Positions 5,901-62,715 of a stretch of DNA of 64,000 nt are shown one piece after another (the first letter of the stretch is position 1; the number at the start of each line of letters is the position of its first letter). The notes beneath the pieces were generated by a model, which was not told the origin of the DNA, made no database searches, and saw only the letters and a program-made list of their open reading frames with translations. Position numbers and translations under genes: made by a program. Source of the stretch: Raja brachyura (Eukaryota); the NCBI GenBank assembly GCA_963514005.1, contig OY740802.1:36208001-36272000 (forward strand), written 5' to 3'.

Positions 5901-6009
5901 TTACCAACCAGCACAGCCGAATGTTCACCCATATGTTGGGAGAAGGAGACCACCACGTCCGGTTGGAGAGGTACAAAAACTTTATCCTATTACAGCAGAA
6001 TCTTTGGAT

Positions 6010-8610: not shown

Positions 8611-8619
8611 CAGTACAGA

Positions 8620-9003
8620 ATGGATGTTAAATCCACAAATTTTCAAAAATATTGTCAGTCGGTTGGAATACCGGACATTGATCTGTTTGCATCTAGATTA
8701 AATCACCAATTGCCCAAATACGTGTCTTGGGATCACGATCCAGGGGCAGTAGCGGTGGATGCTTTCTCGCTACACTGGGGGAATACGTTCTTTTATGCCT
8801 TTCCCCCATTCTGTCTGATTGGGCAATGTCTCAAGAAAATAGCGCAAGATGCTGCCAAGGGCATTTTGGTGGGGCCAAATTGGCCTACACAGTCATGGTT
8901 CCCGTTGATGCTTAAAATGATTACTGAACCATGTATGACAATTCCCAGTTGCAACGATTTGTTGATACAACAAAATAAATTCATCCATTGCATGATCATA
9001 TGA
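8620..9003 (+). pseudogene. DIRS DNA N6-adenine methyltransferase-like domain
   Basis: PDIDLFASRLNHQLPKYVSW...DAFSLHW...YAFPPF...PNWPTQSWFP, the MT domain that follows RNase H in DIRS1-like elements. Confidence 0.85.
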
Positions 9004-9019
9004 ATTTGTTAATCTGCAG

Positions 9020-9992
9020 GTTCTGACCAGACCATTGCAAGAGCTTGGACTGTTGGATAGGACCATGGATGTTATAGCTGCAGCTTGGAGAAATAGCACT
9101 AAAAAACAATATACGTCGCATATAAAATAATGGGAAGTCTTCTGTAGACAGTCAAAGATATCTTATCATACTGCGAACATATCAAATGTATTGGAGTTCC
9201 TTGCTGTGTTGCATTTTGATGAGCACTTAAGTTATAGTGCCATTAATAAGTGCTCGTAGTGCTTTGTCGGCCTATTTAGGACAAATTTCTGATCGAGATT
9301 CAATTGGGTCTCACCCATTAATATCCCGGTTCATGAAAGGAATTTTTAATAAATTCCTCCCAAGCCCAGATATACAGAAATTTGGGATGTTACCATTGTT
9401 CCCACTTTGCTTAGGCAATGGACTCCAATTACTTCAATGTCTTTGCAAAGGTTAACATTCAAGGTTGTAATGTAATGGCATTAGTGTCAGCTCAAAGAGT
9501 ACAAACTTTGCAATTGTTACTGTTAAATTGCATGCATGTGGCTTCAGATAACATTGTGTTTTATGTTTATGATCTGATCAAACAAAGCAGACCAGGAAAA
9601 ACTGGAACCAAGGTAATGTTTAAAGAATATCCTGTCGATGAAACATTGTGTGTAGTTAAGCATTTAACTAAATATATTGAAGTAACCAAAATCTACGAGG
9701 TGCTGAGACAGCGTTACTGATAACGCCCAAAAAACCACATACAAAAGTTTCAGTTCAAACCATTTCTAGATGGTTAGAACAGGTTTTGGATTTAGCAGGA
9801 GTGGACACTGATGTGTTTAAGTCTCACTCCACTAGGGCTGCAGCTGCACCCACGGCGAAGGTACAGGACGTACCACTCGATCAAATTTTAGAGGCCTCAG
9901 GGTGGTGTAAAGAAGAAACCTTTTCAAAGTTCTACGATAAACCTGTTGTCACGGTGCCAGGATTTGGACACGCAGTGTTGGGTTCACTCTAA
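9020..9992 (+). pseudogene. DIRS tyrosine recombinase (frameshifted)
   Basis: AAWRNSTKKQY; catalytic-type residues SAQR, SHSTR, SGW, FSKFYDKP. Confidence 0.92.
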
Positions 9993-10740
9993 ATGCTTGT
10001 TTTGTTTTATATTATCGATTTATATTCTCGATTTATGTTATCACTTGATATCATTATCACTTTTGTTGTAAAAATTTTCCCCTGGGATAGAGGGGTTATT
10101 CTTAAAAATTTGTTCTTTTTATGATTAAAAGACTTATTACATAAATTGAAACAATGTTTTAAAAAATATATATATTATTTACTCACTACTGTATTGACTA
10201 AACAGAGTGTCGTATGGAATGAATCTATGACATAAACACAGAGCTTTAAAATCTTCACGTAGTCACTCACGTGACTCTGAAGTAAAATAGTAAGATTAAA
10301 TGAGAACTTACCTGTTTGAAGTTTGATCTTTATTTATGAGGAGTTACAATGAGGGATTACGTGCCCTCCGCTCCCAGCCCTCATAATATAAATGATCATC
10401 TGGTAGTTCTAGTCTATGTTGAGCCTTAATATCTTACTCCGGCTAGTGGTTCTGTGTTTTTCATGCCACTGCTTTGAAGTATGCTGATCAAGCGCCAGGC
10501 GGGGCTTCTTCACGTAATCCCTCATCGTAACTCCTCATAAAATAAAGATCAAATTTCGAACAGGTAAGTTCTCATTTAATCTTACTATTTTTTGTTAGGG
10601 TGAGATTCAGTCTGACCACTTGCATGTTTTTAAATGGTAACAAAATATATCGAAGAGGGCAATGCAGTTAATGTGGGTGACATGGACTTCATTAAGCAAA
10701 TAGGATTAGCATAGATAAGGATCATAATCATCAGAAACTA

Positions 10741-10957
10741 GACACAAAATGCCTGAGAAACTCAGCAGGGCAGGCAGCACCTCTGAAGAGAAGGAATGGG
10801 TGACATTTCTGGTCAAGTACCTTCTTCAAACAGAATAGTCACGACCCGAAACGTCACCCATTCCTTCTCTCCAGGGATGCTGCCTGTCCCACTGAGTTAC
10901 TCCAGCATTTTGTGTCTATCTTTGATTTAGACCAGCATCTGCAGTTATTTCCTATAC
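10741..10957. mobile_element. Penelope-derived foldback element with 14-bp TSD
   Basis: Inverted arms; TSD atcatcagaaacta at 10727-10740 and 10958-10971. Confidence 0.85.
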
Positions 10958-13140: not shown

Positions 13141-13865
13141 AAGGACGGCAGGCGGGAATCGCATGGAGGGAACAGTGGGAGGGAGACTGGGGGTGAGCGA
13201 GAAGAGAGGAGAAAGTGGTGGCTGCAGGATATAACCGGGTTTGGAGAGAGGGGTGAACAGAGAAGATTTAATGAAGTATGAGGGAGAGCAGCTGATGTGC
13301 AGCGGGTGAGTGAGAACGGAGGAGAGGTGAGCCGGAGTACACGGGCAGGAAGGGTGTGCCACAGCGGAGACTGTGCCTTAGATCGGGCCTCTGTGGAAGA
13401 ACAGGAAGTTGCTGCACTCTTACAAGAAAGGCTCGACTCGCAGCAGTTGCCAGTACACGGCGAGTTCGCAATAGGCGGGAGCCGCCTTATCATTTGTCAC
13501 ATGGGGAATGAGAATGACTGTCTCATCATGTACCAACGTTACTTCCTCGCACGATTGTGTTGGCACAATTCAGGGCCATATGCGTTTTAACACTGGCAAC
13601 CTTTTATTTCCCGGAGTTGATATTCATGACACGTGGGGAATGGGAAGGTGATTCAGGGCGAGTTGTCAGTGACACCGAAACATGAAGGTTGGAAACACAG
13701 TGGCCAAGGCATTCCAACACATCTTTCTGCACTATATTGGTCTCTTGGCCCAGCTGGAGCTCCCTGCTCCTAAACCCAGGGCACGGGTTATGCACAGTGA
13801 CATTCAATTTTCATGAGCCATTGATAAAATGCTTGCCAGCAATTCAGATTGCTGTCTTTCCATGG

Positions 13866-13950
13866 TAGTCAAAAATGCTGGAGAAACTCAGCGGGTTGAT
13901 GCTGCCACACCCGCTGAGTTTCTCCAGCATTTTCGTCTACCTTCGATTGA
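13866..13950. mobile_element. Short Penelope-derived hairpin
   Basis: aaaatgctggagaaactcagcgggt ... acccgctgagtttctccagcatttt inverted pair. Confidence 0.75.
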
Positions 13951-14416
13951 ACAAGAAGAGACAAAGACTTAAGACTTTTGCCTTCCACCACAGTGAGGAG
14001 GTGCCTGGTGAACTCACTGTGGTGGATGTTAATTTGTGTTTATTGTGTGTTTTGTTATTTTATTAAATGTATCACTGCAAGGCAACAAAATTTTGTTCAG
14101 ACCGAAAGCTCTGAATGACAATAAAGGATACTTTACTTTCCAGCATCCACAGTTCCTTCTTAAACATGCTGTCTTTCCATAATGTGCAAGCATACTGCAT
14201 ACACAGGTGTTGAAACTCCTTTTGTCCCATGGCACAATGTGATTGAACCACATCCAGCATTCCTAAAGCAGGGAGAAAAACAAACTCCATGTTTGGAAGA
14301 TTTATCCACCCACCGTCCATGTTTAAATGTTTCCCATTGTGCCTTGCTTCCAGTAAAGCCTTGCTGTGTCCTGCTTGGAAAGGCTTTCATATGAAACACA
14401 ATGAATTGTATGTTGT

Positions 14417-14639: not shown

Positions 14640-16604
14640 GTAAGCATCTAGCCATCTTGCATCCAAATCACCACCGATTCCCAGCCACTGCCACATGACC
14701 AGATCTGCACATAATCAATAATGTGGTCTAAGTGAAAAAATGAGATAGTGGACAGATAATGCAAAAGCCTGCACTAATGACCAAAAGCGATGAGTTCAAA
14801 TCCCCGTATTGCGAAAAGAAGAATAACGTTCAATTAATTCCATAAAAGTGAGCTCAATAATGGTGAAATTAATGGATTGTGAAACATGTTTCTGCTTCCT
14901 TTTATCTTTGAAGAAGGAAGTCAGATCTGTAAGGAATTCGAGATGTTTCACAAGAGTGAATGTTAACTTAAATAGTCTCTCAATTCATTCACTACACTCT
15001 GAATAAAATCACATGGTAAAAGTTGATGGACCCACAGGAGGTATAGCTGACCAGATGAAGTGCACATCACTAAATCTGGATGAAGATCCTCCTTTGGTCA
15101 CCAACCAGGGACTCCTGATAGGTCTTATATGAAAACTGGCTTGGACAATGTTGTGATGCAGTGCAGGATTAAATAGATGGCTGGCAACTGAATTCTGGGT
15201 TGACATGTGAAGAATATTCCACTAAAGCAATACATTGCATGTTAGGTATGGAATAAGGGACTACCGAGAAGGAGATGAGGTATGAAACAATCCCATGAGA
15301 ACACAGGGTATTACCTGAAGCAGACCCTACTGGTATAATTAACTCCTCCAAACCTTCAGATAATTTATTGACCAGAGTGACTGAACGGAAGAAGCACTGG
15401 TGCCAGAGAAGAGCAGGATGCCCCACTTACTGCAAGTGATGGCTGCTAGCCAATACCACAGTTCATGCAGTGACAATGGTTAATGAGTGCTGAATACTGT
15501 CTGGTGATCAGCTGAGAGTGTGATGGATTTGATTTTAGTCCCTTCCAATGTGTCTGATTGAAGCAGACGTATTCCAGAATATGTCTGGAATTCAAATCAT
15601 TCTACTTTTATGGTTGAGCCAGTGAGGGATGTTTCTACAGGAAAATAGGATGACATTGGTAACAGAGCGGCGGGAAAGGATATCGCGACTCAGCTACTGA
15701 AAATCTTTCAATGCTGTCTCATTCGGCCCGACTATGGGTGAACTGGGGATGGGACTGGACTTTGCTGCCTTCCCCACAGTGGGAACCATTGTGGGGGGAT
15801 GTTTTCATGTTTACTGTTAAATTTTTTGATGTTGTGTCTTATCTTTATTTGTGTGCTGCATGGCAAGTCAAATTTCACTACACCAATTGTTGTATGTGAT
15901 AATAAATGTCCTTTGGCCTTTGTTTAATATTTGAGGGCAGTTGCAGGACAGTGGGTGCAAAATAAGGCCTCAGCCTATGCTGTTCTAAGGGGAGGCATGT
16001 GAGATGTTGGAATCTGGAGCCAATAAAACAATTGCTGAAGGAACTCAGCGAGCCAAGCAGCATCTGTGAAGCAAAAGGCATAGTTGATGTTTCGGGCGTA
16101 GACCTGCATCAGGACATTGTCAAATGCCTCTTTGCTTTCATAGGTGCTACTTCACCCACTGACTTCCTCCATTATTTAATGTTATTCTAAATATTGATAC
16201 AACTCCAAAATAATTTCAGTCTACCAAAAAAATGGTGAATTTTGGACATCTGAAACTGAAAATACTGGAACTGTTCCGCAGAGAGGGAGCATCAATGACA
16301 GAGAAGCAGAGTTAATGTGTTTGGTCAATAATCTATCATCATAATATAATTATTTATTGAAAGTAATATGTCTGATCCAACAGCAACAGAGGTTTGCAGT
16401 CCATCACTGCAGGTTCCTTCTGTATTTGCTATGTATGGGGCTGTGGAGGGGAGTGTTAGCGAGACTGGTTGGAAGGAACACACAGACTGTCCACCAGAAG
16501 AGAGCGGAGGTACAGGGAATACAGGACCCACTGTAGACGGTCAGGTATAGGGTGTGACACACTGTGCACATGATTTGCTAATGGCTCTGCACACTTTTAT
16601 CCAG

Positions 16605-16769
16605 AGATCGTTAAGCAGGAGGACATGACAGTGCCGATGTACTGGGATCGGAAGGATACACCACTCCCGGATATTCCCTATTTTAAGGAGCTGAATGCCG
16701 AGCAGACTGCACTGAAAGAAAAGGAGAAGAGTTCGTGGACAAATCTGACCAACGAGGAGAAGGTCGCAT
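16605..16769 (+). CDS. COX4I2: COX4I2 coding exon 2: [55 protein letters not shown]
   Basis: ttttatccag| acceptor, |gtaaga donor, 165 nt; COX4 motifs PLPD and ALKEKEK.W..L..EEKVAL. Confidence 0.96.
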
Positions 16770-17084
16770 GTAAGAGAACCTGAGCCAGTTGGCCATTGAC
16801 ATTTCTTCACTTTGACTGGATAATGATGTTGAGTAACTGAATAGTTTGCATTACTTGAAGTCAGTGTTTAAACCAGGTGCCCCCACTGAGCTACAGTCAA
16901 CAGTCAGAAAGTAGAGACGTAATAAACTGCAGATGCTGAAATCTCGTGTAGGACACAGTGCTGGAGTAACTCAGCGAGTCAGGCAGCATCTCTGGAGGAT
17001 ATGAATAGGTGACGTTTCAGATTGTGACCCTTATTCAGACAGGTGGAAAGTAGATGGGTGACCACCATGAAGGGTAAAGGGAAT

Positions 17085-22024: not shown

Positions 22025-22765
22025 CTATTCAGTACTAAAACACTGCTGGCTGGACAAGGCGTCAGCCAAGATATTATCCTTGCCCCTGATGTGCCTGAGC
22101 TCCAGGTTGTATTCTTGCAGCTGCCAACTCCAGCTCATTAACCGCCGGTTCTTATTCTTCATTTTCTGCAAAAAAACCAAAGGGTTATGATCCGTGAATA
22201 CGATGACAGGGACATTCGAGGAGCCCACATACACCTCGAAATGATTCAGAGACATTAACACAGCAAGGGTTTCTTTCTCAATGGTGGAGTACCACCTATG
22301 ATGGGGATTAAACTTCTTAGAGAAGTACGAAACTGGATGCCCCACCCCCTCTGAATCATCCTGTATAAGAACCCCACGATCACTAGCATCCACTGCCAGC
22401 TTAAATGGACGCTCAAAATCAGGTGCCGCAAGCATAGGTGCGCGCACCAGAAGACCTTTAGTATGATGAAAGGCTTGTTGACACTCAGCGGACCACACAA
22501 AAGCTACCTTCAGACTCAGCAAATCCGTCAAAGGAGCAGCCACTGCAGAGAAGTTTGGACAGAACCCCCTATAGTACCCAGCCATAGCCAGATACCTACG
22601 GAGTTCAGTCCTAGATGTTGGAACAGGAAATGCGACAATATGTCCCACCTTGTCCTCGAGAGCACGAACCTGACCCCGGCCCACCGTCTTACCCAGATAC
22701 GTCACCGTGGCCTGGCCAAACTCACACTTCCCCAGATTGATCATTAGGTTTGCCTCCGCTAGACG
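22025..22765 (-). pseudogene. Gypsy RT C-terminus + RNase H
   Basis: NLGKCEFGQATVTYLG, AGYYRGFCPNFS, FKLAVDASD, YSTIEKETLA, VFTDHNPL, GKDNILADALS. Confidence 0.93.
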
Positions 22766-24261
22766 ACAAAATACCCTTAACGGGAAAACACGGCCGTAAC
22801 CCAACAATTACCCGGCCTGAAACCAACTCGGACTCGAGACTCACGGTATGCAAAGGCACTACCATGTCCTCCAACCCGAATCCTACCACAGGGACACTGG
22901 ACCCAACCGATGACTCCCCAGAAAACGGCAGTACACTATCCAATATAAAGGACTGAGTAGCACCAGTATCACGCAAGATGGATACTGGAACTCTATGACC
23001 CACATCCTTTAGAGAAACAAAACCTTTTGTGATGAACACAGAATAATTCCTACACTCATCAGACGCGGGCATCCCAGGAACCACAGGTGCTTTTTGTGTA
23101 CCCACCAAAGCCACAGGCTTTGCATTTTTCTTGTGCAGGACGGGACCCGACTTTAAGATGTGCCCGCTCCCTTTACAATAGTAGCACACAGGACCTTCCT
23201 TAGTCCTGAAATCTCCGACAACCTTATCAGCTCGGACCTCCCCCTGTATCAATGTGTTGACGCTTGCAGGCATAGAAACAGCTTTGACACTGCCACCGGA
23301 TACACCACCACGATTAAACAGCCGTGCACCAAAACTATAGGCTCGCCCAACAAACTCAGTTTTATGAGTCAATACATACTCATCTGTTAACACCGCGGCC
23401 TTAGACATCTCCGTCATCTTCTGCTCATTAAGGTAAAGTAGCAACCCTCTCAGGGAGACAGTTCTTAAAGTCTTCCATAATCATCAAGACCCGCAGCAGC
23501 TCAAAATCCTTCACTCCTTGAGAAGTGCACCACCTGTCAAAAAGTGCCTCCTTCTCCCAAGCAAACTCCACATAAGTCTGACTATCAAACTTCCTAAAGC
23601 GCCGGAACTTCTGCCGGTACGCCTCTGGAACTAATTCATAAGCCCTTAATACCGTAGACTTCACACACTCATAGTCCCGACTGCTGTCAACTGATAAAGA
23701 CGAGTACACCTCCCGTGCTTTACCCACAAGGACACACTGCAATAGCAAGGCCCACATGTCCCTAGGCCACTTCAAGGACGAAGCCACCCGTTCAAACACT
23801 GCAAAATACTTGTCCACATCCTTCTCATTAAACGGGGGAACCAGGCGGATGTTCTTGCTCATATCAAACCCGTTCCCTAGAAGAAACTCGGGAGGCATTC
23901 AATTCCTTCTCCTGCAGCTCAAGGCGTTTCATTTCAAGCATGAGCTCTTTCTTAAGGCCCTCTCCTCCTTTTTCATTTCAAGCTCCTCCTTTTTCATTTC
24001 AAGCTCTAACTCCTTCAATCGAATGAGGTCCCCCATTTCCTGACCAGGCTGTGTAGAAGATAGAGGACTGTCTGCACCAGCAGGCAATACCCCACTCCTC
24101 ACCAACGCAGACCTTAACACCGACTTTATAGACTCTTTCTTCAAATGCTTATCAATAGACACCTTATAGCTCTCTGCCAGCACAAACAAATGCTCCTTCG
24201 TACATTTATCAAACAACTCCCGACTAGGAGCCTCAGTAAAGTCCTCCACTTTAAACTCCAT
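22765..24261 (-). pseudogene. Gypsy gag (SCAN-related capsid, degenerate CCHC) + aspartic protease, frameshifted
   Basis: VPPFNEKDVDKYF, LKWPRDMWALLLQ, AYELVPEAYRQKFR, CYYCKGSGHI, ILRDTGATQS. Confidence 0.9.
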
Positions 24262-26397
24262 ATCAAATGTAGGACCAAACCACCAGCCAAACCCTGGGCA
24301 CAAATGTTACCACAAACGGAAGAAAAAATAAAAACAATCCCCTCACAACACAGACTTCCTCAGTCACCAGAAGCCTACCAAAAAAACCCCCAAAACTGTC
24401 TAGGGTACTCAAAGCTTAGGACAAGCCCCCATTTTGTTACGACTCCTGAATGCAGGTACTTCAGAGCTGCGTAACATAGTCAAAAACCAGGTTCAAGTTC
24501 AAGAAAATAGTCTTTAATTTAGTTAAGGGAAGACAAAAACCCAAACCTGATTCAAACAACAGTCAGGGACAAGAATAGACTAACAAACAAATATAACAGT
24601 GCTCCAGCCAGCCTCGCAATGGACCGTCGAACTAGAGTCTATAACCTGCTTAAATGGAGATAACCCTGAAACAAAATACACAAAAACCCTCAGGTCAGCC
24701 CTTATCCGTCCCAATTCAATATTAATTGACAAATATAGGTAACAATACACAAAGTTCTATGCCATGTGGCCAGGCCTCCTGCAGCTCACACCAGCAGCCT
24801 GTTCACTAGTCAGGGTCGACGAAGAGAGAGAGAATTCTGGGAGACTCCTGGTATTTAAGCTTCCGATGAGTCACCCGTCACCTGACGCAGTTTGGCCAAT
24901 CGGGTACAGGAGCCCTTAACCCCTTGATTCCTGACTCCCAGCCACGGGGCCTGCACTCAGGAGAGAAACAGAAAAGGAATGTACAGAGCATTCACCGGGG
25001 CGGGGGAAGCGCCTAACAGTGATGTTTTGGGTCGTGACCCTTCTTCATTCTAAAGAATGGTTCTGACCTGAAACATCACCTATCCATTTTCTCTGGGGAT
25101 GTGGCTTGGTCTGACCTGAGTTACACCAGCATTCTGTGTCTATCTTTGGTATAAACCAGCACCTGCAGTTCCTTTTTACTACATTATAACTTTCAGCAGC
25201 TGGTCACTCTCAGATAAGATTGAAGGTTGTGAGTTGAAGCCCCATTTCAGCACAAAATCGGGCTGCTATCCTGCAATGTCCAAGCTGTCAGTGAATCAAG
25301 GGGGCTTCTTGGTGACTGCAAATTATTCTATGATCTTACTTGAAAACAATGTGGCAGTTTTCCCTTTCAACATCAAAAGGGATCTGATTGTTTTGTCATT
25401 GCTAATGGTGTAATCTCGATGTCTAAAAAGAGATTACATTATTGTTTCTACCGTATTACAGGAATACACTTAAATTACTTGATCGAATATAACAAAAGTT
25501 ATAGGACACAATCAAAAATTAGCAGGTTTCAAGGATTCAGATCAATGATGAACTCAGACAATATAAAATTTAAAGCACAAACATTTATTAAAGCAACAAT
25601 GAGAAGTTAGCAATAGAATGGCAATACAACTTCTCGTAAATCAACTATAAAAACACAAATAAACCACAATATAAATAGCAGCAGAAAGTGGCAAATAAAC
25701 AGCGAATCTCACACATCCTTCAGCATTTAAAGGCTGTAACTTCAAAGCTTGTTGGGAAAGCTTGTGCTGGAGAACTCTTGGGGAACCTGTGTACTCTGGC
25801 TCTACTCTGGACACTCTGCCCGAGGTGAAGAGATGCGAGCTCGTGTGTAAAAGCCTGAGCCACTACCCCCATCTAAGAACAACAGTTGACTGTTATTCGT
25901 CGCACCAGGAACTGAGCCAGTCACGGGTGTCTCCAAGAAGGTAAATGTTTATCTTTGTGGCCTCGTGATTTACTGGTTCTTCAAAGCTAGCCCAAGTATT
26001 TTCACAAACATCTAATCGTTTTTCTAAGCGAGCCTACATGCTTGACATGTGGTGCTTTTAATTTAGTTGAAAAAGTTTTATTCAATTTTAAGCTGACTCC
26101 ATTTTAGTTGATTCTGCTTAACCCTTACATTATAGGTTATGCTATAATCTCAGGGTGTCTGTAATGCAAGGGTTAAGCAGACTGTAATGCAAGGGTTAAG
26201 CGTACTATAACAAGGACTATATGTGTGCTAGTGCAAGAGGTTAATCCTTCAATGGATTGACCTTCTGAGCTAACACATATGCAGTCCTTGAGGAATCCAC
26301 CTTTGTCTCTGGGCTAATTCTCAAGTGAATCATGTCCTCTGCCAACAGTGTCAAGAACAGTAACAGTTTCCATATGGATGCAGACACAGCACATTCT

Positions 26398-32219: not shown

Positions 32220-32626
32220 TGTTGCTGAATTCCATCTGCTCCTCAGCTATAAATAATTTATGTTTTCTCCCCCTGCCCACCCACCCAAACCATCAGATCA
32301 TGTTACAGACAGACACTTCCATCTCCTAGCACATCAAAAGCACCTCCCTAGGCTACAGCATCCAATTCATTCTTCATTCTGCAACTCCTACCCCAGCACA
32401 CATATTAGCATGCTCCGCCATTACCATCAGACCCATAGCCGCTGCAGCCCTTTTCACAAATCTATCTTCTCTTATTTTACGTCCAAACTTTCAAAGACTC
32501 ATCTAACAGTGTTTCCTGGACCAGTAGCTCATTTTCTTCTCTCTAGTGGCTGACAGGGGTGGTATGCTGAGTAAAAGCAGTGCCATTCTTGCTCTGGCCT
32601 AATTGTGGCTTTCCTATTTTTTTCAG

Positions 32627-32763
32627 TTTATCCCTCCCAACCACACACCTTCAGTGAGGAGTGGCAACGAAAACAAATGAAAAGAATGCTGGAAATGCGC
32701 ATGAACCCTATTGAGGGAATTGCCTCCAAATGGGATTACGAGAAGAATGAGTGGAAGAAGTAA
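32627..32763 (+). CDS. COX4I2: COX4I2 last coding exon: VYPSQPHTFSEEWQRKQMKRMLEMRMNPIEGIASKWDYEKNEWKK*
   Basis: Pyrimidine tract plus ttttcag| acceptor, 137 nt to TAA; KRML.M..NPI.G.ASKWDYEKNEWKK is the COX4 C-terminus. Spliced CDS is 525 nt. Confidence 0.97.
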
Positions 32764-34735: not shown

Positions 34736-34876
34736 TTACCTTCTCCGGGCCACATACGCAGCAACGGCTAGTGTTGCACCCAAAGCCATTAATGCCACAA
34801 ACCATTTCATGGCCGTCTCCTGTAACTCACGATTACGTGCAGCAGCGTTATTCCCATATAGCACCACAAAGGCATC
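34736..34876 (-). CDS. BCL2L1: BCL2L1 (Bcl-xL) last coding exon: DAFVVLYGNNAAARNRELQETAMKWFVALMALGATLAVAAYVARRR*
   Basis: Phase-0 acceptor ttttctgtccccag|GAT; matches Bcl-xL D.FV.LYGNNAAA (end of BH2) followed by a hydrophobic tail anchor; convergent with COX4I2 as in mammals. Absent from the ORF track because it is short. Confidence 0.92.
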   Translation of the reverse strand, partial: DAFVVLYGNNAAARNRELQETAMKWFVALMALGATLAVAAYVARRR

Positions 34877-35486
34877 CTGGGGACAGAAAACACAGACGAG
34901 TTAGCTGCCAGCACGTCACTTAGTCGACAGTCCTAATATAAACACCTCCATTGGTAACCTCGCTGTTACCAAGTCCACAATCATGTCCTTGACAAAGCAA
35001 AGTCCTTTTCTAAACAACACAGGCAAGATTCCAGTTTAATATTCGCTTTGTACTACTTAGCCAGTAAGCCATACAATAATAATTTATTTTCTCTAGGTAC
35101 CTGTAGTCAGTAAGTTTGCAGTACTTGTATTTTCTTCTTTCCAAGATAAATAGTTGAATTATCCCAGTAAGCTATTCAGAAAATTAGAAGCCGACTGTGA
35201 AATGTGTGATTGGAATTAAATGTAGGTCACTGCAGAGATATTAGTTAATTGATTAGATTTCATAACCATCATGCAACTTTCATTACTGTTCTTCCGGTGC
35301 TGCCCACAAATTAATTGAATTTAGTAACACAATTTGTTATTGAGGTGGGATCTGCATTCTCAACCTCCAAATTGTTTGTCCAGTCAGAAGACAACTATGC
35401 CACTAGTTTGTCACCAGTCGATTATTAATCGCACTGGAGTGGAGAGGCACTTTAATCACGCCTCAGTAATCTATTCCAGAAGTTTA

Positions 35487-35644
35487 AGGCAGACAAAAAT
35501 GCTGGAGAAACTCAGTGGGTGAGGCAGCATCTATGGAGCGAATTAATCTATTCCTTCACTCCATAAATGCTGCCTCACCCGCTGAGTTTCTCCAGCATTT
35601 TTGTCTACCTTCGATTTTTCCAGCATCTGCAGTTCTTTCTTAAA
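35487..35644. mobile_element. Penelope-derived foldback with perfect 15-bp TSD
   Basis: TSD tattccagaagttta at 35472-35486 / 35645-35659. Confidence 0.88.
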
Positions 35645-36221: not shown

Positions 36222-36565
36222 GATGTAGAAAAAAGGAACTGCAGATGTTGGTTTAAACCAAAAATGGACACAAAGTTGAGGTGTAACTTAGCGAGTCAGG
36301 CAGCATATCTGGGGGAAAAGGATGTGACATTTTGGATTGTGACCATTCTTCAGACTGAAAGTAGGGGGGTTAGGGATGGGGAGGAAGGGGGGAGGGGAGG
36401 CCAGGCACCATCTTGCCAGAGGTCATTTGTGCCATCTATTGTCACCTCCAGGTCTTCAACTCTCCCTCCCCACACCCTTTCAGTCTTAAGAAGGGTCCCG
36501 ACCTGAAACATCACCCATCATTGCCCCCCCACAGTTGCTGCCGAGTTCCTCCAGCACTTTACGAC
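36222..36565. mobile_element. Penelope-derived foldback (older)
   Basis: aaggaactgcagatg ... cttcagactgaaag ... ctttcagtcttaagaagggtcccgacctgaaac. Confidence 0.7.
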
Positions 36566-36962
36566 TATCTCAAGGCAGAGAATATTCAGTTCAAGGCTGG
36601 TTAAGTAGGAAGGAACTTCTGCATCGTTGCAATAAATGGAAATCTCACCATTGCCCTCTCAGGTGCATGGCATAATCAATTCCACTAACTGATTCCCCAG
36701 GAGAATACTGAGGAAAATGAAAAACCATAATCTTAACTGGACCAGCGACTTAAATAACATGATTATAACAATGGATCAGCGACAGGGTGCTTGACTTGCC
36801 TCCTTATTTGTGCCATCTACTAAAAAAAAGGTGTGATGGCGTTCTCTTCTGCCTGGATAGTTGTTTCAACAACATCAAAGAAGCTCATCGCTTCCATACC
36901 ATGCAATCAGCTTGATTGATAACACATTAAACAGACCGAATGCCGTTTTAACAGATTGACTT

Positions 36963-38672: not shown

Positions 38673-39336
38673 GTGATTTAATCGATACACTACAATTCCA
38701 AGACATAAAATATCACTCATCAGTGACAAATTCTTTCACCGGCAGGCAGAATACCATTGGTGTACTATTCAGATTAGTATTGGTTAACTTTGTGAACATC
38801 AGAAGGATGGAAGACCATCAAAGACCGTGCCATGAATCATCCTATCTGCATGATGAATGTAACAACCTACTCAGCCTTCAACAAGGTTGCCTATGCGGGC
38901 TACGTGTACTGCTCTCCTGAGCAAGGCCAGCAGGATGATGGGAACACCTCCACCAGCCTCCATGCCAATTTATACATATCCCCATTCTTTCACTACTGCT
39001 GGAGCAAATGCTTGGAAGTTTCAAACTAACAGCACTGCGGGTGTCAAGTCAACAACCCCGTTGCAGGTTGTATTAATCAGGACAGCTCACAATCAACTCC
39101 AAGAGCAACAATATTTGTTGTACTTGGTAGTGACATCCTCTCCTGACAATAATGAAATTCTTTGCCATAATTATGCAGCTCACACTGCACTACAAACACA
39201 GGCCAAGACAGAACTACTAACGGACAAGACAGTGTTCTTTCATGTTGAGCAACATTTGGAAGAAATATCAAGGGCAGCAAGAACAAATCATCCACTTTGA
39301 ATTGGTGTCTATACTGAGCCAACCAAGGGGTAAGGA

Positions 39337-39433
39337 GTCTGAGGAAGGGTCTCGACCTGAAACGTTACCCATTCCTTCTCTCCAGGGATGCTGCCTGTCC
39401 TGCTGAGTTACTCCAACATTTTGTGTTCATCTT
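39337..39433 (+). mobile_element. Penelope-derived half element with hammerhead-like core
   Basis: ctgagga a gggtc tc gacct gaaacgtt acccattcc. Confidence 0.75.
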
Positions 39434-40015
39434 CAACCAAAAGGCAAGGCTGACAGAGACAAGATCACCTTAGATATCACCAGGTGTGTTCAGCTCCAAT
39501 TCTCCTTGTCACTTTGGCCCGAACATTGAGCAAAGAGTTCCATCCCAGACGCTAGGCAAGAGTGTCTGCCCTTGACATTGGGACAACATTTGAGGGGGCA
39601 TGGCATAACGGGGAAAACACTCATGTACTTACATCAAACTTTTCAACGTAATAATATTATGGGCGCTCGTTTGTATGTAGGGACATTCCTAATTGGCACA
39701 GCCTGTACTCATGAGTCGCTGGGAAAAAATTTGTGATATGCGAGTGTTTTGTGATGCACACATCCTCATACAGACTGTCCTGCGGAGATATATAGGCTGC
39801 CAATATTGTGTTTCAAAAATAAGGGATTGCATAGTGTGCTGTGGTTGCTGCTGATACTTATGGTGATTCAACAGGGAGTGAACTGCAGTCCAAATGTTTC
39901 ATAAAATAAGAATACAATTTCCTACAATACAATAACAAAATCTTGAAATAGTTTTCACATTCCATGATCCACCCAGTTTTGCGACACCTACTGGCAGGGC
40001 TTTACTGCTTTGACA

Positions 40016-43000
40016 GGGCACCTACGTGGGGATGCTCTTCATTGACTATAGCTCTGCCTTCAATACGGTCATCCCCACCAAGCTCACCACCAAACTCCAC
40101 CAGCTAGGCCTCAGCTCACTGATATGCGATTGGATCCTGAATTTTCTGACGGAGCGACCGCAGGCAGTGAGACTGGGGCCGCACCTGTCTTCCACTATCA
40201 CCCTGAGCACCGGCACACCACAGGGCTGTGTACTGAGCCCCATGCTCTACTCCTTCTTCACCCATGACTGTGTCTCTGCATTTGACAACAACACCATTGT
40301 CAAGTTTGCAGACAACACAACGGTGATCGGGCTGATCACCAACGGTGATGAAACAAACTATAGAGCAAAGGTGCAGAACCTGGCGGACTGGTGCTCACGG
40401 AATAACTTGTCGCTAAACACCTCCAAGACCAAGGAGCTGATTATCGACTTCAGGAGGTCACAGAATGGGGAATATGCCCCAATCTCCATCTACGGAGACA
40501 GTGTGGACAGAGTGTCCAGCTTCAAGTTTCTGGGCACTCACATCTCAGAAGACCTCACATGGTCCACCAACACCACTGCGCTGGTCAAAAAGGCACAGCA
40601 ATGACTGTTCTTCCTAAGAACATTGAAACGGACTGGTCTGCCCCAACAGCTGCTGACGACCTTCTACCGCTGCACCACAGAGAGCATACTAAAGGCCCTG
40701 TCTCACGGTGCGAGTTGACCCACGAGTGACAGACTCGTGGTTGTGTACGATATTCCAAGTTGATGTGCAAGTGTTTGTGGCGAGTTCCCACGGGTATGGT
40801 AATCTGCGATGTTCCGAGTTCGTCTCCAGAGTTACCAAGTTCCCCTCCCGTTTGCTCTTGCGTTACCAAGTTCCTCTCCCGCTCAGGGCGTGTGTTGTTG
40901 CTGCAGTCCGGGATTCGCATTTAAAGCACTCGATTATCTTCAGCAGTTCAGGCGAGGACAGGTTTGGGGGGGGGGGGGGGGGGGGAGGGATGGTGGAATT
41001 GGGAGAAGGCAAAGGCTATGGGTGGGGAGGAGTGAGAGGGAGGCTAGGAACGGCATGTGCGAAACGGGTAGTCAACCTTTAGGGTCCCGGCCCGAAACAT
41101 CCCTATACATTTTATGATTTCCCTCCAAAGATGCAGTCTCCCGTGGTTTGTTTGCACAACTCTCTCCCAACATTGGGGGGGGGGGGGGGGGGGGGGGAAA
41201 CGACAAGATAGTTTAAACGGACCTTACCCCCACTTCATGCTTCTGTTGCGCATAATTCAGCAGTAAAACCTCTCTTCTCCTTACCCAGCGACGCCCGATT
41301 CCTCGCACCCCCACAAGTTCACATCGACGAGGGAAGAATGAGCGGGGAGTCTGAAGAAGGGTCCCGACCCGAAACATCACCCATTCCTTCTCTCCAGAGG
41401 CGATGCCTGTCCCGCTGAGTTACTCCAGCATGTTTGTGTCTATCGTCGGTGTAAACCAGCATCTGCAGTTCCTTCCTACACACGGACAGTGAAGTGCCTC
41501 GGCCAAATTGCACGTGTTCTCGGTCAAACCATACACACCAATAAGTACTGGGATTGTTTTAGTTTGGGCTCAGTATGGTGTCCGTAGCCTGGGCACAGTG
41601 CCAGAAAAAATGTTGATAAATATGTGTGGAACTTTCACAAATAAGGGGCTAGATAGGTCTGGAGTGTGGTGTTAACCACGGGGCTGTGTCCTGCTGAGAT
41701 AGACACAAAATTCTGGAGTAACTCAGTGGGACAGGCAGCATCTCTGGAGAGAAGGAATGGGAGACGTTTCGGGTCGAGACCCTTCTTCACATCAGCTGAA
41801 GCAGATCTGTGTGTTCGGACTTGATGGACTAAACCACCACACCTAACCCCAAGATCAAAAAGATGTTGACATATCCACTATATATGTTATTTAATTTCTC
41901 CGTCAGAACCTGTGCGTTCAGTGGAGATTTTCTCGACGGAGGAGCGAGGATGATAATGAGAAATAAAGTGGCAGGAGAGGCTCCAAACACAAATAATTAA
42001 ATTAATCTTGTTTAAAAAGAGAATATGTCTGTTAAAAAACCCCCAGAGGAAATTAATTGCTTCTACTGAAGAGCGGAGTCATTCCATTATGAATCATTGA
42101 TTCTCAATGTATTTTTATAAATTAGATAATTTGAAATGCTGCAGTTTTGAATGGTAAAGCCGGGCTTTGGCATCATTTCTAAAATCTAGGAGATGATTTT
42201 AAGCAAATATCGGACCTATTTATTTTCTCTTTCTCGCTTTTAGGTTTTGATGTGTTTATCTTGTCACCCAAGTAAATAGATACAGGTTATAAATATTTTA
42301 AAATATTGTACAGTGGTTTAACACAATCTCTATGATTGGCATACTTTTCATTTAAAGGGCAGCCCTTTAAATGTTGAGCTCATAGATGGATACTATGCAT
42401 GATATTCATGCAATTTAATATTGGATGTAACTAGGATGTGTGGATTTTTATCCTGGAACATTAGGATTCTCTGATGTGAAAGTAGTCTGGTTTGCGTTTC
42501 TTACACTTGATCATATCCGAAACTAAAGTATAGATAGACTCAAAATGCTGGAGTAACTCGGCGGGACAGGCCGCATCTCTGGAGAGAAGGAATGGGTGGC
42601 GTTTTGGGTAAGTCTGAAGAAGGGTCTCGACTCCATTCCTTCTCTCCAGAGATGCTGCCTGGTCCGCTGAGTTACTCCAGCATTTTGTGTCTATTAAAGA
42701 GTTCCCACGGTAGACGCACGAATCACTAAACTTAACGCACGGGCCACTACGATATAACTCTGAGTTTAAATGTTTCAATTTTAAACTTGAACACGAAATT
42801 TGACTCGTGGAAAAAGTCAAACATGTTTGACTTTTTTCACGAGTTCACAAGTTTCACAGGTACCTGCCGTTAGCGCCACGAGTGGACAAGTTGATCGCGC
42901 GAGTTCCGACGTTCCCGCTACGTTGGCTGTACGTGATCACCACGAGTGAAAACTCGGGGTCACTCGTGGGCCAACTCGCACCGTGAGACAGGGGTTTTAC

Positions 43001-48332: not shown

Positions 48333-48549
48333 GTTCAAGAAGGAACTGCAGATGCTGCAAAATCGAAGGTAGACAAAAGTGCCGGAGAAACTCAGCGGGT
48401 GCAGCAGCATCTATGGAGCGAAGGAAATAGGCAAAGTTTCAGACCGAAACCCATCAGTCTGTAGAAGGGTTTCGACCCAAAACGTTGCCTATTTCCTTCG
48501 CTCCATAGATGCTGCCGCATCCGCTGAGTTTCTCCAGCACTTTTGTCTA
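48333..48549. mobile_element. Penelope-derived foldback with perfect 14-bp TSD
   Basis: TSD cattcacatattat at 48319-48332 / 48550-48563. Confidence 0.88.
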
Positions 48550-49127
48550 CATTCACATATTATTTCTGCTTCAAATAACTCACAAACTAAACATATTCAC
48601 CAAACAAGACATGATATACACCACAATGACATGCAGCAAAATTATAATACAATATCTCAACTCTTTTTACACATTGCAATTAATGCAATTTCTATTAGTT
48701 CTTTCCACTTCCAAACAAAAATGTGGTTGGATTATTCAGCAAATGATCAAGCTGTGTCAATAAATCCTGGACCATGCACACTACAAATCGATGCAAGCAT
48801 GTTTTCTGTGAAGGACCGAAAATTACCATGACATGGCCATAGCATGGGTCATTATTGCTATTGGCACAGAAACACTCTGGCTTCACACATAATTTATCCA
48901 CAACAAAATATACAGGTTGCAAGGAAATTTCTAAAGGCATTTTATGGTAATAGCTGTTAAAACCGACTACACTCATCTGACAGGTTAAACATTACACTAA
49001 CTGACAAAGATGGCCAAAGGACATAACTGCAGCAAATGTTCTATTGGTAATATGTTTAACGGTGTCAAAACAAATAATAACATTGGGAATTAAAACACAT
49101 TTGATTGCATTCCGTTATATTTTTTTT

Positions 49128-49769: not shown

Positions 49770-50560
49770 AGCACAGGGGATGGTGTTGAATGGGGGGGGG
49801 GGGATCAGTACGGGATGGATGGGGGGGGTTTGGTACAGGATGAATGGGGGTAAGACAAAAATGCTGGAGCAATTCAGCGCGTGAGGCAGCATCAATGGAG
49901 CTAAGGAAATAGGCAACATTTCAGGTCGAGACCCTTCTTCAGACTGTTACCCCCCCTATTCTTCTTGAATGGGGAGATCAGTACAGGATGGATGGGGGGG
50001 GGAGGGGGGGGAGAATCAGTACAGGATGAATGGGGGTGGAGTGGATCAGTAGAGAATGAATGGCGGGGATCAGAACAGTGTGGATCGGAGGGTCTGTGCA
50101 GGATGAATGGGAGATCATTACAGGATGAATGAGGGTCAAGTATAGGATGAATGGGGGATCAGTACGGGATGAATGAGGGGATCAGTACAGGATGCATGAG
50201 CGGATCAGTACGGGATGAGTGGGGGATCAGTAAAAGATGAATGGGGAGATCACTACAGGATGGATGGGGGGGTTTGGTGCAGGGTAAATGGACGGTGGGT
50301 CAGTACGGGATGAATGGGAGGATCAATGCAGTATGAATGGGGGGCGAGAAGTGCAGGATGGATGGGAAGGGGGGTCAGAACAGGATGAATTGGAAGACCA
50401 GTGTAGCATGGATGGGGGGGGGGGGTGGCAGGAGAATCAATTCAAGGTGGGTAAGGTGATGAATAGATTGGGGGGGGGGGGTAGATGGGGAGGGGAGCGC
50501 AGGGGATGTCAGTGAGGACTGAATAGAGGGAATGGGGATCAGCGCAGGATGGAGAGGAGG
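49770..50560. repeat. Degenerate G-rich minisatellite, about 21-24 bp (gggggatcagtacaggatgaatg)
   Basis: Tandem degenerate units visible, interrupted by a Penelope piece at about 49850-49945. Confidence 0.85.
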
Positions 50561-52210
50561 GGTCCCAGGATAAGAAGGGGGAGGAGGAGGGGGAGGGGCA
50601 GAGGAGGTGGGGAGGAAGGAAGGTCAGCGCTCCTCGGACAACATCGCCCTACTGCCTTGGCCGTCCCTGTCCAACGCCAAAGTGCCGCCGCCAAAGGGGG
50701 AGGCGGTTGGGAACTCGTCGCCACGGTGCAGCTCAAAGATCCTAGGTGCAGCTGCTTCAGACTGCAGAAGGAGGGCTCTCTCTCTCTCTCTCCTCCTCTC
50801 CTGGCCTCGGCGTGTGAGAGGGGTTGTTTTGAAAGCGCCGTTAAGCAGCGGCCGTTATCAGGGCGATAGCAGCCGCTGCCTGCAAATCCACCAAACAACG
50901 CCCTCTCGTACGCCGAGGGAGGGAGCGGAGAGAGGGAGGAGAGAGAGCGAGAGCGAGAGCAGGGAGGGAGGTCTCCTTCAGATGGGCAGTGTGCGGGGGG
51001 AGGAGGCGGTGGAGCTGCTGTCGTGGCCGCTGCTGCCGCTGGTCGAGACCGGTCATTCGCTCCGACTCTTCGTCACCCTGCACCTGGTATCTTTGCCCCG
51101 CAATCAAAGATACTAGACTAATACAGCTCCCGCCGTCAACACAAAACGTCACGCTCCTATACTCCGGAGATGCTGCCTGACCTGCGGAGTTACTCCAGTT
51201 TTTTGTGTCTATCGGTATAAACCAGTATTTGCGTGCTAAGCCGGGCAAAATGAGTCGGCGTCTGGGTTGCCCGGCCGCACTTTGGGTGGTCGTTGGCACC
51301 CGGCCAACCACTAATTTCGAGCCCTGCTGTATTTTAAAGTATAGATCATGGTGTATAGCCAAAATAATGAGATGAAGCAAAAATAAATAAATCTGCTTTT
51401 ACAAAGAAAAATCAGATATGTCCCTTTCTTGCCTTAATTTGTGCCATTTTTCAGCAGGATTTCATCAAATCCTTAGGCTAATTGATACCAGAAAGATTAC
51501 ATTAATTTTACAATTAAATAACTGTATATAAGCCAAATTCTGATTCTGATTTTTATCATTTATCACCCGATAAGATGGTTTTCTGATGTCCCAAGTTTTT
51601 GCAGCAGAACATGAGTAGCGGTGTCTATTGTGTCACGTGTTAAATGTGTGAATTAAAAGCAGAATAACCGTTTTTATATTTATTGATTCTTTTTTCATTG
51701 TTTATATTTTGTGATTCTTTCCATTGAAATATTTAATAATGAATGGAACTTAAAATCATGAAATAAAAATCTAGTTTACTCACCTATTTTAGCGATGTTT
51801 CATTCTGTCGTCGTCGTCCCATCCCCGTTGAGTAGCATCGTAAATGCTATTTATATCACTATAACAGGGGTTTTTTTGCACGTCGCAATTAAAAAAAAAT
51901 TCAACCAATGTGATTATATTTACCTGGCGTGAACTATGGGCCTCATGGTGGGTTAGATGCCGAGATTTTGTAAGGGAGCTTTGAAATCAGTAAGTGTCCC
52001 ATATGTTTTATTTTAAAACATTTCTCTCGTTTTTTTTTCAAATTTTGAAAGTATTAAATTTTGGTCAAATCGGTCGATTTTGATCACAAATTAGCTCAAA
52101 ATGATCTTAGGCAAGGTAGGCCCATTTTTTATCCTGTGGTATTTCGTAATGATTTAATAACTTCCAAACGTTGCCATCCATTTCACAGGTTGGAACCCTT
52201 ATTTACGGAA

Positions 52211-53380: not shown

Positions 53381-54192
53381 TACAATACAATGCGGTTTTA
53401 TTCATCACATTGCACATAAAGTGCAAGTGAAATGAATTTGCCAGCAGTGGTACAATGATAAAGAACACCCAAAACACACTAAAAAGTTAACATAAACATC
53501 CACCACAGCATTCATCACTGTGGTGGAAGGCACAGAATTTGGCCAGTCCTCCTCCATTTTCCCGTGGTTGGGACCTCAACCCTCCGCAGCCGTCGCTGCG
53601 GGCGTCCAGATGAACAGGCAGGTAAAAGTCCAGGTAAGTCCAGAATCGGCTCTTCCCCACCGGAGACCGTGGCTTCAGGAAGGTGTAGGCCGCAGGCCGG
53701 CGGTCGAAGTTTTAAAGTCCGCGCCGCAGCCAGAAGCACCGCAGACCGCAGGGCCGGCGGTCGGTTTCCTCTCAAGGGGTGATGGTAAGTCCACGCTGGG
53801 CATGCGGTAGAAGTAGACCGCGGGCCGGCAGTTGGAGCTCTTCTCCTGTGTCACCACTGTGGACGCTGCCGGGGGCCAGCGAAACGGAGCGCCCGCGTGA
53901 GGGCAGTGAGGGCTCGCCCGCTCCGCGTCGAGAGTCCGCACTGCGCCCGCCACAGAAGCCCCGGGCTCGACTCCGGGAAAGGCCGCGCCGATCCTTGCTG
54001 TCAGGCCACGGGGGAGGCGACCTGGAAAAATCGCCTCTTCGTGGAGGAGGCAACCGAAACGGTTTCCCCCTTACCCCCCCCACACAAAGAAACATTAAAA
54101 ACACATTTTCAAACACACTAAAAAAAAAATTAAAAAGTTGAAAAGACTAACACGCTGCTGACAGGGCTGCCGGCTTGCAGCGCCCCCACCGC
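53381..54192 (-). mobile_element. GC-rich non-autonomous retroelement (same group as 28092-29062)
   Basis: tcactgtggtggaaggc and gatggtaagtcc motifs, aataaa tail, ggtgggggcgctg 5' end. Confidence 0.55.
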
Positions 54193-60696: not shown

Positions 60697-61382
60697 GGGT
60701 AGACAAAAAACGCTGGAGAAACTCAGCGGGTGAGGCAGCGTCTATGGAGAGAAGGAATGGGCGACGTTCCGGGTCGAGACCCTTCTTCAGACTGATGTCG
60801 GGGGGGGGGGGGGGGGGCAAGGACTATCTTAAATTAGACAAGTCAATGTTCATACCACTGGGGTGTAAACTACCGAAGCAAAATATGAGGTGCCGTTCCT
60901 CCAATTTGCGTTAGGTCTCACTCTGGCAATGGGGGAGGCCCAGGTCAGAAAGGGAATGGGAGGGGGAGTTGAAGCGCTGAGCAAACAGGAAATCAGGTTG
61001 GTTAGTATGAACTCAGCGGAGGTGTTCAGCGAAGTGATCGTCGAGCCTGCGCTTGGTCTCGCCGATGTAGAGAAGTTGATACCTGGAACAGTTGATGCAG
61101 CAGATGCGATTGGAGGAGGTGCAGGTGAACCTCTACCTCACCTGGAAAGACCGATTGGCTCCTTGGATGGAGTCGAGGGGTGAGGTAAAGCGACAAGTGT
61201 AGCATTTCCTGCTGTTGCAAGGGAAAGTACCCGGGGAGGGGATAGCTTGGGTAGGAAGGGACAAATTGACCAGGGAGTTACGGAGGGAACGGTCTCTGCA
61301 GAAAGCAGAAAGGGGAGGAGATGGGAAGATGCGGCCAGTGATAGGATCCTGTTGGAGCTGGCGAAAATGTCGGAGGATTATA
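60697..61382 (-). mobile_element. Penelope-like element 3' fragment with GIY-YIG endonuclease remnant and pLTR
   Basis: GTFPCNSRKCYTC...FTCTSSNRICCINCSRYQLLYIGETKRRLDDHFAEHLR on the minus strand, followed by the same terminal sequence as the foldback elements. Confidence 0.9.
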
Positions 61383-62004
61383 TGTTGTATTATTACATCA
61401 GTCAAAGACTGTGCTTGATAATCCTAAATTACAGATACAGAGGATATTTATTCATGGAACAGTCTGATAATGTAGATTAAAATATCCCAGTTTGTCGTGG
61501 AGTACTGGAATTGGATTACAATTATATACATGTGCTGGCAATGTGCAACGAACAGCAACTCTGTAATTCAGCTGCCTCTTCCATACAAACCCATCGACAC
61601 AAGGAAAGGCTTCACTAATTACTCCTAATGTATCACTTTACATTCAGCCTTTAACATCATAATCACGTCATTGGAATATCACATCATCAGACGGAATATG
61701 CAATAAAGTATGATAATCTGTCAATTTCTATCATTCCGCTTGACTCTTCACATTCAAAACTATGTCTCAAAAATTTAACATTGTACTTTTGGGACTACTG
61801 TATTAACACTGTATTCTGTATTAACACTGTTTTCGTCACATTTTTAACTAAATGCCCTTTCTCATTTGTATCCAATTTTCAGTTTAATTTTGTCCTCACA
61901 CTGCCATTCAGATGTAAAAAGCAAATGGATGCTTGATGGCCAGTGGTTCAAAGGGCTTGTTTTCATGCTTTATCTGTCAACAACTATGAATTAATGCATA
62001 ACTT

Positions 62005-62715
62005 ACAAGAACAGAAAATGCTGCAGTAACTCAGCAAGTCAAGCAGCACCTCTGGAAAGCATGGATAGGTGATGTTTCGGGTCACTACCCTTCTTCAGCC
62101 TGATTGTGGTAAGGGTGGGGGTGGGTGGGGCAGTAAAGAAAGCTGGATTAGAGGAGAAGCGGGACAAAGCATGTCCAGTAATAGAAGAACCACTGGTGAG
62201 TGTGGTTTTGATAGGCAAATTGATGGACAAAGATAAGGAAAAAAACCCAGATATGAGCCTGAAACGATAAAGAGTTGCAAATTTTGAAGCTCAGTGACAA
62301 AAAAAAATTGCTAATGTAGGGATCTCCCAATTTCCAGCCATGTTAACTCCCCTTCCCCTACTGACGTTTCTATCCTGGGCCTCCTCCACTGCCAGAGTGA
62401 GGCCACACGCAAACCGGAGGAACAACACCTCGCATTCCAACGGCATGAATATTGAATTTTTCAATTTTAGGTAACTTCGACAAACACCCCCCTTCCCCCC
62501 AAACCCATCCCCTGAATACTGGCTGATCTAGGGCCAGTTGCTCCCATTATCCACCCTTCCACCTACATTCCTTACACCGGCTACACAATCCCCAGGCTGA
62601 AGAAGGGTCCTGACCATTAACAACTATCCATGTTTTCCAGAGATGCTGCCTGGCCCACTGAGTTACTCCAGCACTTTGTGTCTTTCTTTAATAAAACGGC
62701 ATTGGCAATTCCTTG
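62005..62715. mobile_element. Penelope inverted pLTR structure with C-terminal ORF remnant
   Basis: Inverted terminal arms; cctccactgccagagtgaggccacacgcaaaccggaggaacaacacctc (Penelope C-terminus). Confidence 0.75.

Follow-up and report, generated by a model that had tools for sequence, protein, structure and literature searches.

Minimal type I hammerhead ribozymes of Penelope-like elements (PLEs) follow the consensus CUGANGAH-G..C-GAAAN-palindrome-NUH (Cervera & de la Pena 2014, PMC4209133). In the accessible parts of that report (all comparisons made here with cited papers refer to such parts) they occur in both pseudo-LTRs (pLTRs) of an element and are dispersed in mass as single truncated copies and inverted pairs. 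Helix I typically has about 3–5 bp, with 2-bp cases published for Drosophila, Culex and Oikopleura. The hammerhead of the Anolis Poseidon PLE (PAc) is located in the pLTR, upstream of two reverse transcriptase (RT) start sites to which a tail of 30–40 bp is tied. Its insertions come from uncut RNA, the ribozyme is protein-dependent and dispensable for insertion in vitro, no RNA-seq ends were found at the cut site, and a C3G mutation abolishes it (PMC11167929). PLEs of the Neptune and Nematis clades carry an RT, a CX2-5CxxC linker and, at the C-terminus, a GIY-YIG domain (EN+), and their copies include partial tandems and inverted 5′-truncated forms with a tail (Craig et al. 2021, PMC8557442). 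Animal non-LTR retrozymes also use a type I hammerhead of PLE pLTR origin, are defined by tandem repetition with two or more complete hammerheads, and are present in the one chondrichthyan sampled (bioRxiv 10.64898/2026.07.22.740005).

Here we analyse a hammerhead-like motif in a 64-kb stretch of skate DNA (the window). We consider it highly probable that the motif represents the core of the minimal type I hammerhead in the pLTR of a Neptune-type PLE, and that the copies in the window are truncated, mostly mutated and likely inert stubs. The ribozyme motif is of a known kind; the PLE family carrying it is new and very abundant. Our literature search found no paper on the hammerhead of this family in cartilaginous fish, although the supplements of the 2026 retrozyme preprint may hold the motif; no cartilaginous fish name was found in those supplements of PMC4209133 that can be searched.

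The motif and its secondary structure

The motif is present at 39339–39366 of the forward strand as initially annotated. A 27-letter scan of the window gave 9, 13, 16 and 17 matches at up to 3, 4, 5 and 6 mismatches, respectively, and the same scan of ten shuffled sequences gave 0–1 matches each. An HMM built from 19 window copies found 32 matches, foldback arms being counted separately. Both searches bear out the motif at 39339 and at the other annotated sites. The annotated pairing had to be revised. A 5-bp stem II (GGGTC/GACCC) closed by a 2-nt loop (tc) is ruled out on steric grounds; since such a loop cannot form, stem II has 4 bp (GGGU/ACCC) and a tetraloop, which is CUCG, CCCG, UUCG or CACG depending on the copy. 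The corrected motif consists of CUGANGA, an extra A, stem II, GAAA, C-G-U and H17. All four loop II variants presumably fit the YNMG stable-tetraloop motif, and the CpG context may explain part of this fit.

Like the published minimal hammerheads, the motif combines CUGANGA, an extra nucleotide after A9, a G10.1–C11.1 pair and GAAA-C-G-U-H without loop 3 (PMC4209133). This match, together with the presence of the motif in both pLTRs of intact PLEs in this genome, agrees with its assignment to PLE pLTRs. The extra base between A9 and 10.1, described beforehand as a known natural variant, fits CUGANGAH of the consensus and is A in 34 of 38 descriptor matches. Folding confirmed the earlier estimate of only about 2 bp for stem I. 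The skate motif is at the short end of the published range in both stem I (2 bp) and stem II (4 bp). A strict descriptor accepted one copy in the window, +39339. No Rfam hammerhead covariance model was among the 15 window matches at E ≤ 5, the top ones being miRNA models on foldback hairpins.

In folding calculations, the predicted probability of stem II was at most 0.05 for +39339 as well as for a young consensus-like copy (L197). Stem I, in which one of the two pairs is U-G in the young subfamily, adds no predicted stability, and in a competing predicted hairpin the downstream pyrimidine tract takes the core as its partner. No longer partner for stem I was found within 250 nt upstream, where the best duplex has 4 bp (−5.8 kcal/mol). 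The catalytic monomer fold is therefore predicted not to be populated. Dimerization through an intermolecular ACGU helix III would gain about 3 kcal/mol, a predicted gain that is lost in +41351. Because the 2-bp stem I and the competing hairpin leave the monomer fold unpopulated, we infer that cleavage would require a dimer joined by a shared 4-bp ACGU helix III, and probably the PLE protein as well. When four foldbacks were folded, three gave hairpins of −118 to −150 kcal/mol and the fourth one of −52 kcal/mol; inside such long hairpins the core of a foldback would be buried. As the two arms of a foldback lie on opposite strands, a foldback provides no cis dimer.

Copies in the window

The features of the window are listed in Table 1. 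Among the six copies initially ranked as best, only +39339 has a complete core; lesions were found in each of the other five. Its family has a G10.1–C11.1 pair, in place of which +39339 has a G-U wobble due to CpG decay, and its predicted cut site is 39366|39367. Of the 17 scored copies, which retain the core region, 16 fail the complete core if the 15.2/16.2 palindrome is included, in line with the annotation that most copies have a core mutation. The scored copies beyond those named carry at least two lesions each, and one of them (−14527) has a 3-nt deletion in the core that put it out of register in scoring.

Table 1. Positions of hammerhead copies, foldbacks, PLE remnants and host exons in the window
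Feature	Position	Strand	Remarks
Minimal hammerhead core	39339–39366	+	Only window copy with complete core; antisense to BCL2L1
C3–A9	39339–39345	+	Part of +39339
Extra A	39346	+	Part of +39339
Stem II	39347–39350/39355–39358	+	Part of +39339
Loop II	39351–39354	+	Part of +39339
GAAA	39359–39362	+	Part of +39339
C15.2/G16.2/U16.1	39363–39365	+	Part of +39339
U17	39366	+	Part of +39339
Retroposed PLE stub, about 98 bp	39336–39433	+	Starts at −3 relative to C3, ends near +94
Left target-site duplication of +39339 stub	39320–39335		13/16 identical to right copy
Right target-site duplication of +39339 stub	39434–39449
Core copy	41351–41378	+	G16.2>A, palindrome lost; passenger in TIR element
Core copy	41763–41790	−	C3>G; passenger in long form of TIR element
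Core copy	49915–49942	−	C11.1>U and C15.2>U
Core copy	60763–60790	−	A13>G; directly downstream of broken PLE ORF end
Broken PLE ORF C-terminus	60824–61393	−	Cx4CxxC linker, GIY-YIG; in-frame stops
Core copy	62071–62098	−	G16.2>A; inverted partner about 500 bp from +62597
Second broken PLE ORF C-terminal fragment	62366–62475	+	Upstream of +62597
Degenerate copy	62597–62624	+	GAAAC-GU lost
Head-to-head foldback	10730–10947		Both cores destroyed; predicted hairpin −118 kcal/mol
Other foldbacks	13851–13952, 16030–16181, 25019–25172, 35480–35635, 36235–36592, 42512–42717, 48342–48558
Non-autonomous TIR element	40674–42997		About 50-bp terminal inverted repeats, TAA/TTA flanks; inserted in LINE
BCL2L1 last coding exon	34739–34876	−	Intron from 34877 past window end
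COX4I2-like coding exons	16574–16780, from 20734, 32575–32760	+

Arms of tight head-to-head foldbacks make up 16 of the 32 HMM matches in the window. None of the six named copies is such an arm; some are solo stubs left by retroposition, others 3′ ends linked to an ORF or passengers carried by a DNA-transposon-like element. The proposed dispersal by Penelope foldbacks does not hold for these copies and is only part of the story.

The TIR element, which we take to be PIF/Harbinger-like, carries five HMM matches (41081, 41347, 41791 and the foldback 42512–42717). When window positions 41340–41490 were compared with the genome, 28 of 40 scored matches were 100% identical over 151 bp, its own copy included, and 30 fetched matching loci share the element around this segment. 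Long and internally deleted forms exist, 41510–42454 being missing from most fetched copies. This young element has taken up PLE hammerhead stubs and multiplied them further as DNA.

Further repeats were noted in the window. A fragmented DIRS-like element on the forward strand (5857–9992; RT, RNase H, methylase-like and tyrosine-recombinase-like frames by eye) is interrupted by a CR1-like LINE at 6606–7658. A COX4I2 intron holds a broken Gypsy-type LTR retrotransposon (22025–24306, reverse strand; gag-, protease- and RT/RNase H-like frames by eye). A degenerate tandem repeat of about 25–30 bp lies at 49966–50464, directly upstream of the −49942 copy, and the BCL2L1 intron has two GC/CpG-rich islands to which no gene is assigned (50500–51300 and 53500–54150), each a possible internal promoter or repeat.

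The source element

A protein search of the genome yielded 17,401 candidates, and many of the 150 that were scored are long open frames. Of 20 long copies fetched, three (L196, L197 and L211) are equipped with direct pLTRs, each of which contains a perfect core. The layout is pLTR-ORF-pLTR, the two cores of intact elements are about 3.97 kb apart, and the pLTR pairs of L196 and L197 are 97.5% and 99.5% alike. The L196 frame of 1,203 aa contains an RT, a Cx4CxxC linker and, at its C-terminus, a GIY-YIG domain; in Pfam, RVT_1 (E = 4e-4) and GIY-YIG (E = 2e-3) were both under the cut-off. The intact or near-intact young elements lie at L196:4830–9348, L197:4594–9442 and in L211, and the N-terminal part of the 1,203-codon frame is long and Pro-rich. 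A core was also found downstream in 24 of 30 related ORF-end loci. The family has probably been active recently.

This domain order is that of Neptune and Nematis EN+ PLEs, to whose clades the CX2-5CxxC linker has been assigned (PMC8557442). Judged from its sequence, the source appears to be a Neptune-type EN+ PLE, the choice between Neptune and Nematis resting on the linker motif. The copies also resemble those of Neptune and Nematis elements in their partial tandems, inverted 5′-truncated forms and tail; a sharp pile-up of 5′ ends at the front edge of the hammerhead distinguishes them from the accounts in PMC8557442. The arrangement of a pLTR hammerhead upstream of two RT start sites, the tail and the insertion of uncut RNA are shared with PAc. 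Unlike PAc, the skate element has the linker of another clade, and its ATG follows C3 at a distance of 163 nt; in PAc, the ORF already begins at stem II (PMC11167929).

Genome-wide abundance

Exact cores through U16.1, counted without H17, number about 80,800 in the whole genome (70,604 of the U-A stem II form and 10,189 of the U-G form), and the reversed-sequence control gave 0. For comparison, about 4,000 were reported for coelacanth and 9,000 for Xenopus (PMC4209133); the skate count is roughly 9–20 times these largest vertebrate counts there, obtained with different search methods. An independent sample of 600 kb (60 evenly spaced 10-kb stretches of large contigs) held 21 cores, which extrapolates to about 94,000, and 264 HMM matches. 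Genome-wide, HMM matches would amount to roughly 0.9–1.4 million, foldback arms counted separately. A head-to-head partner was found for 124 of the 264 matches. The mass dispersal as single truncated copies and inverted pairs is like that of the published minimal hammerheads (PMC4209133).

An independent non-autonomous ribozyme element, a retrozyme or SINE amplifying via circular RNA, might be expected from the facts that most copies are 95–130 bp without ORF (17 of 264 sampled matches are ORF-linked) and that, for 80 of the 264, another match lies on the same strand less than about 600 bp away. In sequence, however, the stubs hardly differ from the pLTRs of intact PLEs in their subfamily, whose two 3′ ends they share. 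Their 5′ ends are spread over about 10 nt, away from the cut site. No tandem array of intact cores occurs in the window, where the only close same-strand neighbours are 41081 and 41347, neither of them complete. Unlike the tandemly arrayed retrozymes (bioRxiv 10.64898/2026.07.22.740005), the window copies are solo stubs or inverted pairs, and an origin of this kind is very unlikely.

Relation to the host genes

We take the gene on the reverse strand to be BCL2L1, from the exon with the Bcl-2 domain (Pfam PF00452) 347 bases beyond the window end and from motifs and gene order; the name COX4I2-like is likewise our assumption from motifs and gene order. The motif was initially thought to be dispersed through both host genes, but all six named copies lie in the BCL2L1 intron and none in COX4I2. 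That minus-strand copies are sense in this intron was confirmed, BCL2L1 being on the reverse strand.

Ribozymes active in the host introns could in principle cut the pre-mRNA of COX4I2 or BCL2L1, for instance if they paired in trans with other copies. The exact cores of the genome are possible trans partners, and 55 of 94 young copies (described below) have an intact core pattern. Against this, the only complete core of the window is antisense to BCL2L1, and every scored sense-strand copy in the intron is lesioned in the core or at the 15.2/16.2 palindrome; one such lesion, C3G, inactivates the hammerhead of the anole PLE (PMC11167929). In foldbacks, the core is predicted to be drawn into other pairing. 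There is no strand bias (9 matches on the forward and 8 on the reverse strand of the intron), and no enrichment: the window has 32 matches in 64 kb (0.50/kb) and the background sample 264 in 600 kb (0.44/kb; SD 3.65 per 10-kb stretch). As the density is at background, neither host gene is singled out. Cleavage of host transcripts is therefore extremely unlikely, and a special relation of the copies to the host genes is not supported. The copies are probably carried along without activity, and the locus on its own is unremarkable transposon debris.

Conservation of the core

Of the 264 sampled matches, 165 span the motif and were clustered on downstream columns alone. The subfamily cores are identical apart from CpG decay. 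Non-CpG second alleles above 10% were absent from all 13 core and all 8 stem II columns; they occurred in 2 of the 4 columns of loop II and in 18 of the 60 downstream. Across subfamilies, the core is modestly more constant than the downstream flank (0/13 versus 18/60, Fisher p = 0.03). Downstream columns that are not polymorphic match the core in conservation (0.918 versus 0.925), so that core constancy is not unique. Subfamilies differ in loop II, H17, 1.1 (U-A/U-G) and 11.4 (U-A/U-G; 10,189 copies), and 15.2–16.2 is C-G in all subfamily consensuses. The stem changes seen are one-sided and keep the pair, and two-sided covariation was not found at subfamily level within this genome: two-sided stem variants are rare (A-U in 62 copies, C-G in 166), and decay by itself could account for such numbers. 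In contigs of related organisms (four runs, close and pre-selected for likeness), variants occur only at H17, at 1.1 and further downstream, with none of at least 10% from C3 to U16.1, which is weak evidence for selection on the core.

These data bear on the idea that a hammerhead-derived sequence no longer cleaves and is kept for another job, as promoter or initiator, splice acceptor, or binding site for RT or protein. Loop II varies from subfamily to subfamily, but all catalytic positions, the extra nucleotide, G10.1–C11.1 and the ACGU palindrome stay the same. The same pattern recurs in metazoan PLEs (PMC4209133), and the anole motif cleaves with protein (PMC11167929). For another job speak the monomer fold, predicted not to be populated, the anole PLE, which needs no cleavage for transposition in vitro and for which RNA-seq gave no ends at the site (PMC11167929), the Naiad PLEs, which proliferate without canonical hammerheads (PMC8557442), and the positions of the insertion ends described below. 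On balance, we consider a non-cleaving role unlikely.

Insertion ends of the stubs

In the young subfamily, 29,081 copies match C3 to +39 exactly, and 8,543 of them also keep 11 upstream bases. We mapped 94 young copies, chosen only on +28 to +62 in the first 3.9 Mb of contig C1; 23 of them are foldbacks, the arms of which are not independent. The 5′ end was at −7 to +2 of C3 in 51 copies, further upstream in 30, at +3 to +24 in 11, and near the cut site (+26 or +28) in only 2. The 3′ ends are bimodal, at about +93 and +128 from C3, in keeping with the 30–40-bp tail tied to two RT start sites in PAc (PMC11167929), and 17 of 94 copies have an exact target duplication of 9–17 bp. As 51 of 94 copies begin at the front of the core but just 2 near the cut site, RNA that has been cleaved seldom serves as template. 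In agreement with the anole data (PMC11167929), the insertions would derive from RNA that is still uncut. No paper on the truncation of stubs at the hammerhead front was found in our literature search.

According to the hammerhead reading that we prefer, reverse transcription would start at two downstream sites and copy still-uncut RNA, as in the anole PLE in vitro. The ribozyme would be selected in master elements and not in the dispersed copies, which would decay neutrally, mainly at CpG.

The front-edge pile-up fits both a transcription start and a splice acceptor. YYANWYY is the initiator consensus. Precedents for both exist in D. virilis Penelope, which has an internal Inr/DPE promoter (PMC2377424) and an intron that ends at helix I (PMC4209133). 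More tentatively, we propose that PLE RNA may begin 1–5 nt before the hammerhead, its 5′ end given by the initiator-like TCAGTC/CCAGTC or by a splice acceptor as in Drosophila Penelope, and that RT may start 95–130 nt inside, so that the uncut RNA head would yield ribozyme-complete stubs. The ribozyme would then be a protein-gated off-switch that removes the RNA 5′ end, and not a mobilisation step.

Two young copies run from −4 into the ORF start and support an RNA 5′ end there. The base before A(−3) is G in 13 of 28 cases (24% expected; p = 0.008, post hoc), which was considered as a cap-derived G; junctions at −2 are likewise G-rich, the young copies gave 5 G and 5 A, and the 2,016 genome matches were counted for G only. 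None of the 20 long copies starts at −3. Of the five that reach the 5′ region, three run past −3 and the other two begin at +81 and +130; this speaks against an mRNA start at −3 in its simple form. An intron with its end at CAG|U in front of C3 was sought in four contig runs presumed to be RNA: none of the 15 joints listed, out of 91, is of the GT..AG type, and the extra bases 5′ of the stubs differ from copy to copy. In L197, a long pyrimidine tract without AG (5270–5342) ends in CAG one base before the stem I strand; by its sequence it looks like a strong 3′ splice site, which sense insertions would make available to host genes.

If the proposed start site is true, it would have seeded some 80,000 catalytically complete cores able to pair in trans. 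With its young intact elements carrying two tandem ribozymes, this PLE family is a test case for what PLE hammerheads do. Its insertion ends argue against cleaved RNA as template, and its copy number allows a genome-wide test of whether intact sense copies are depleted from introns.
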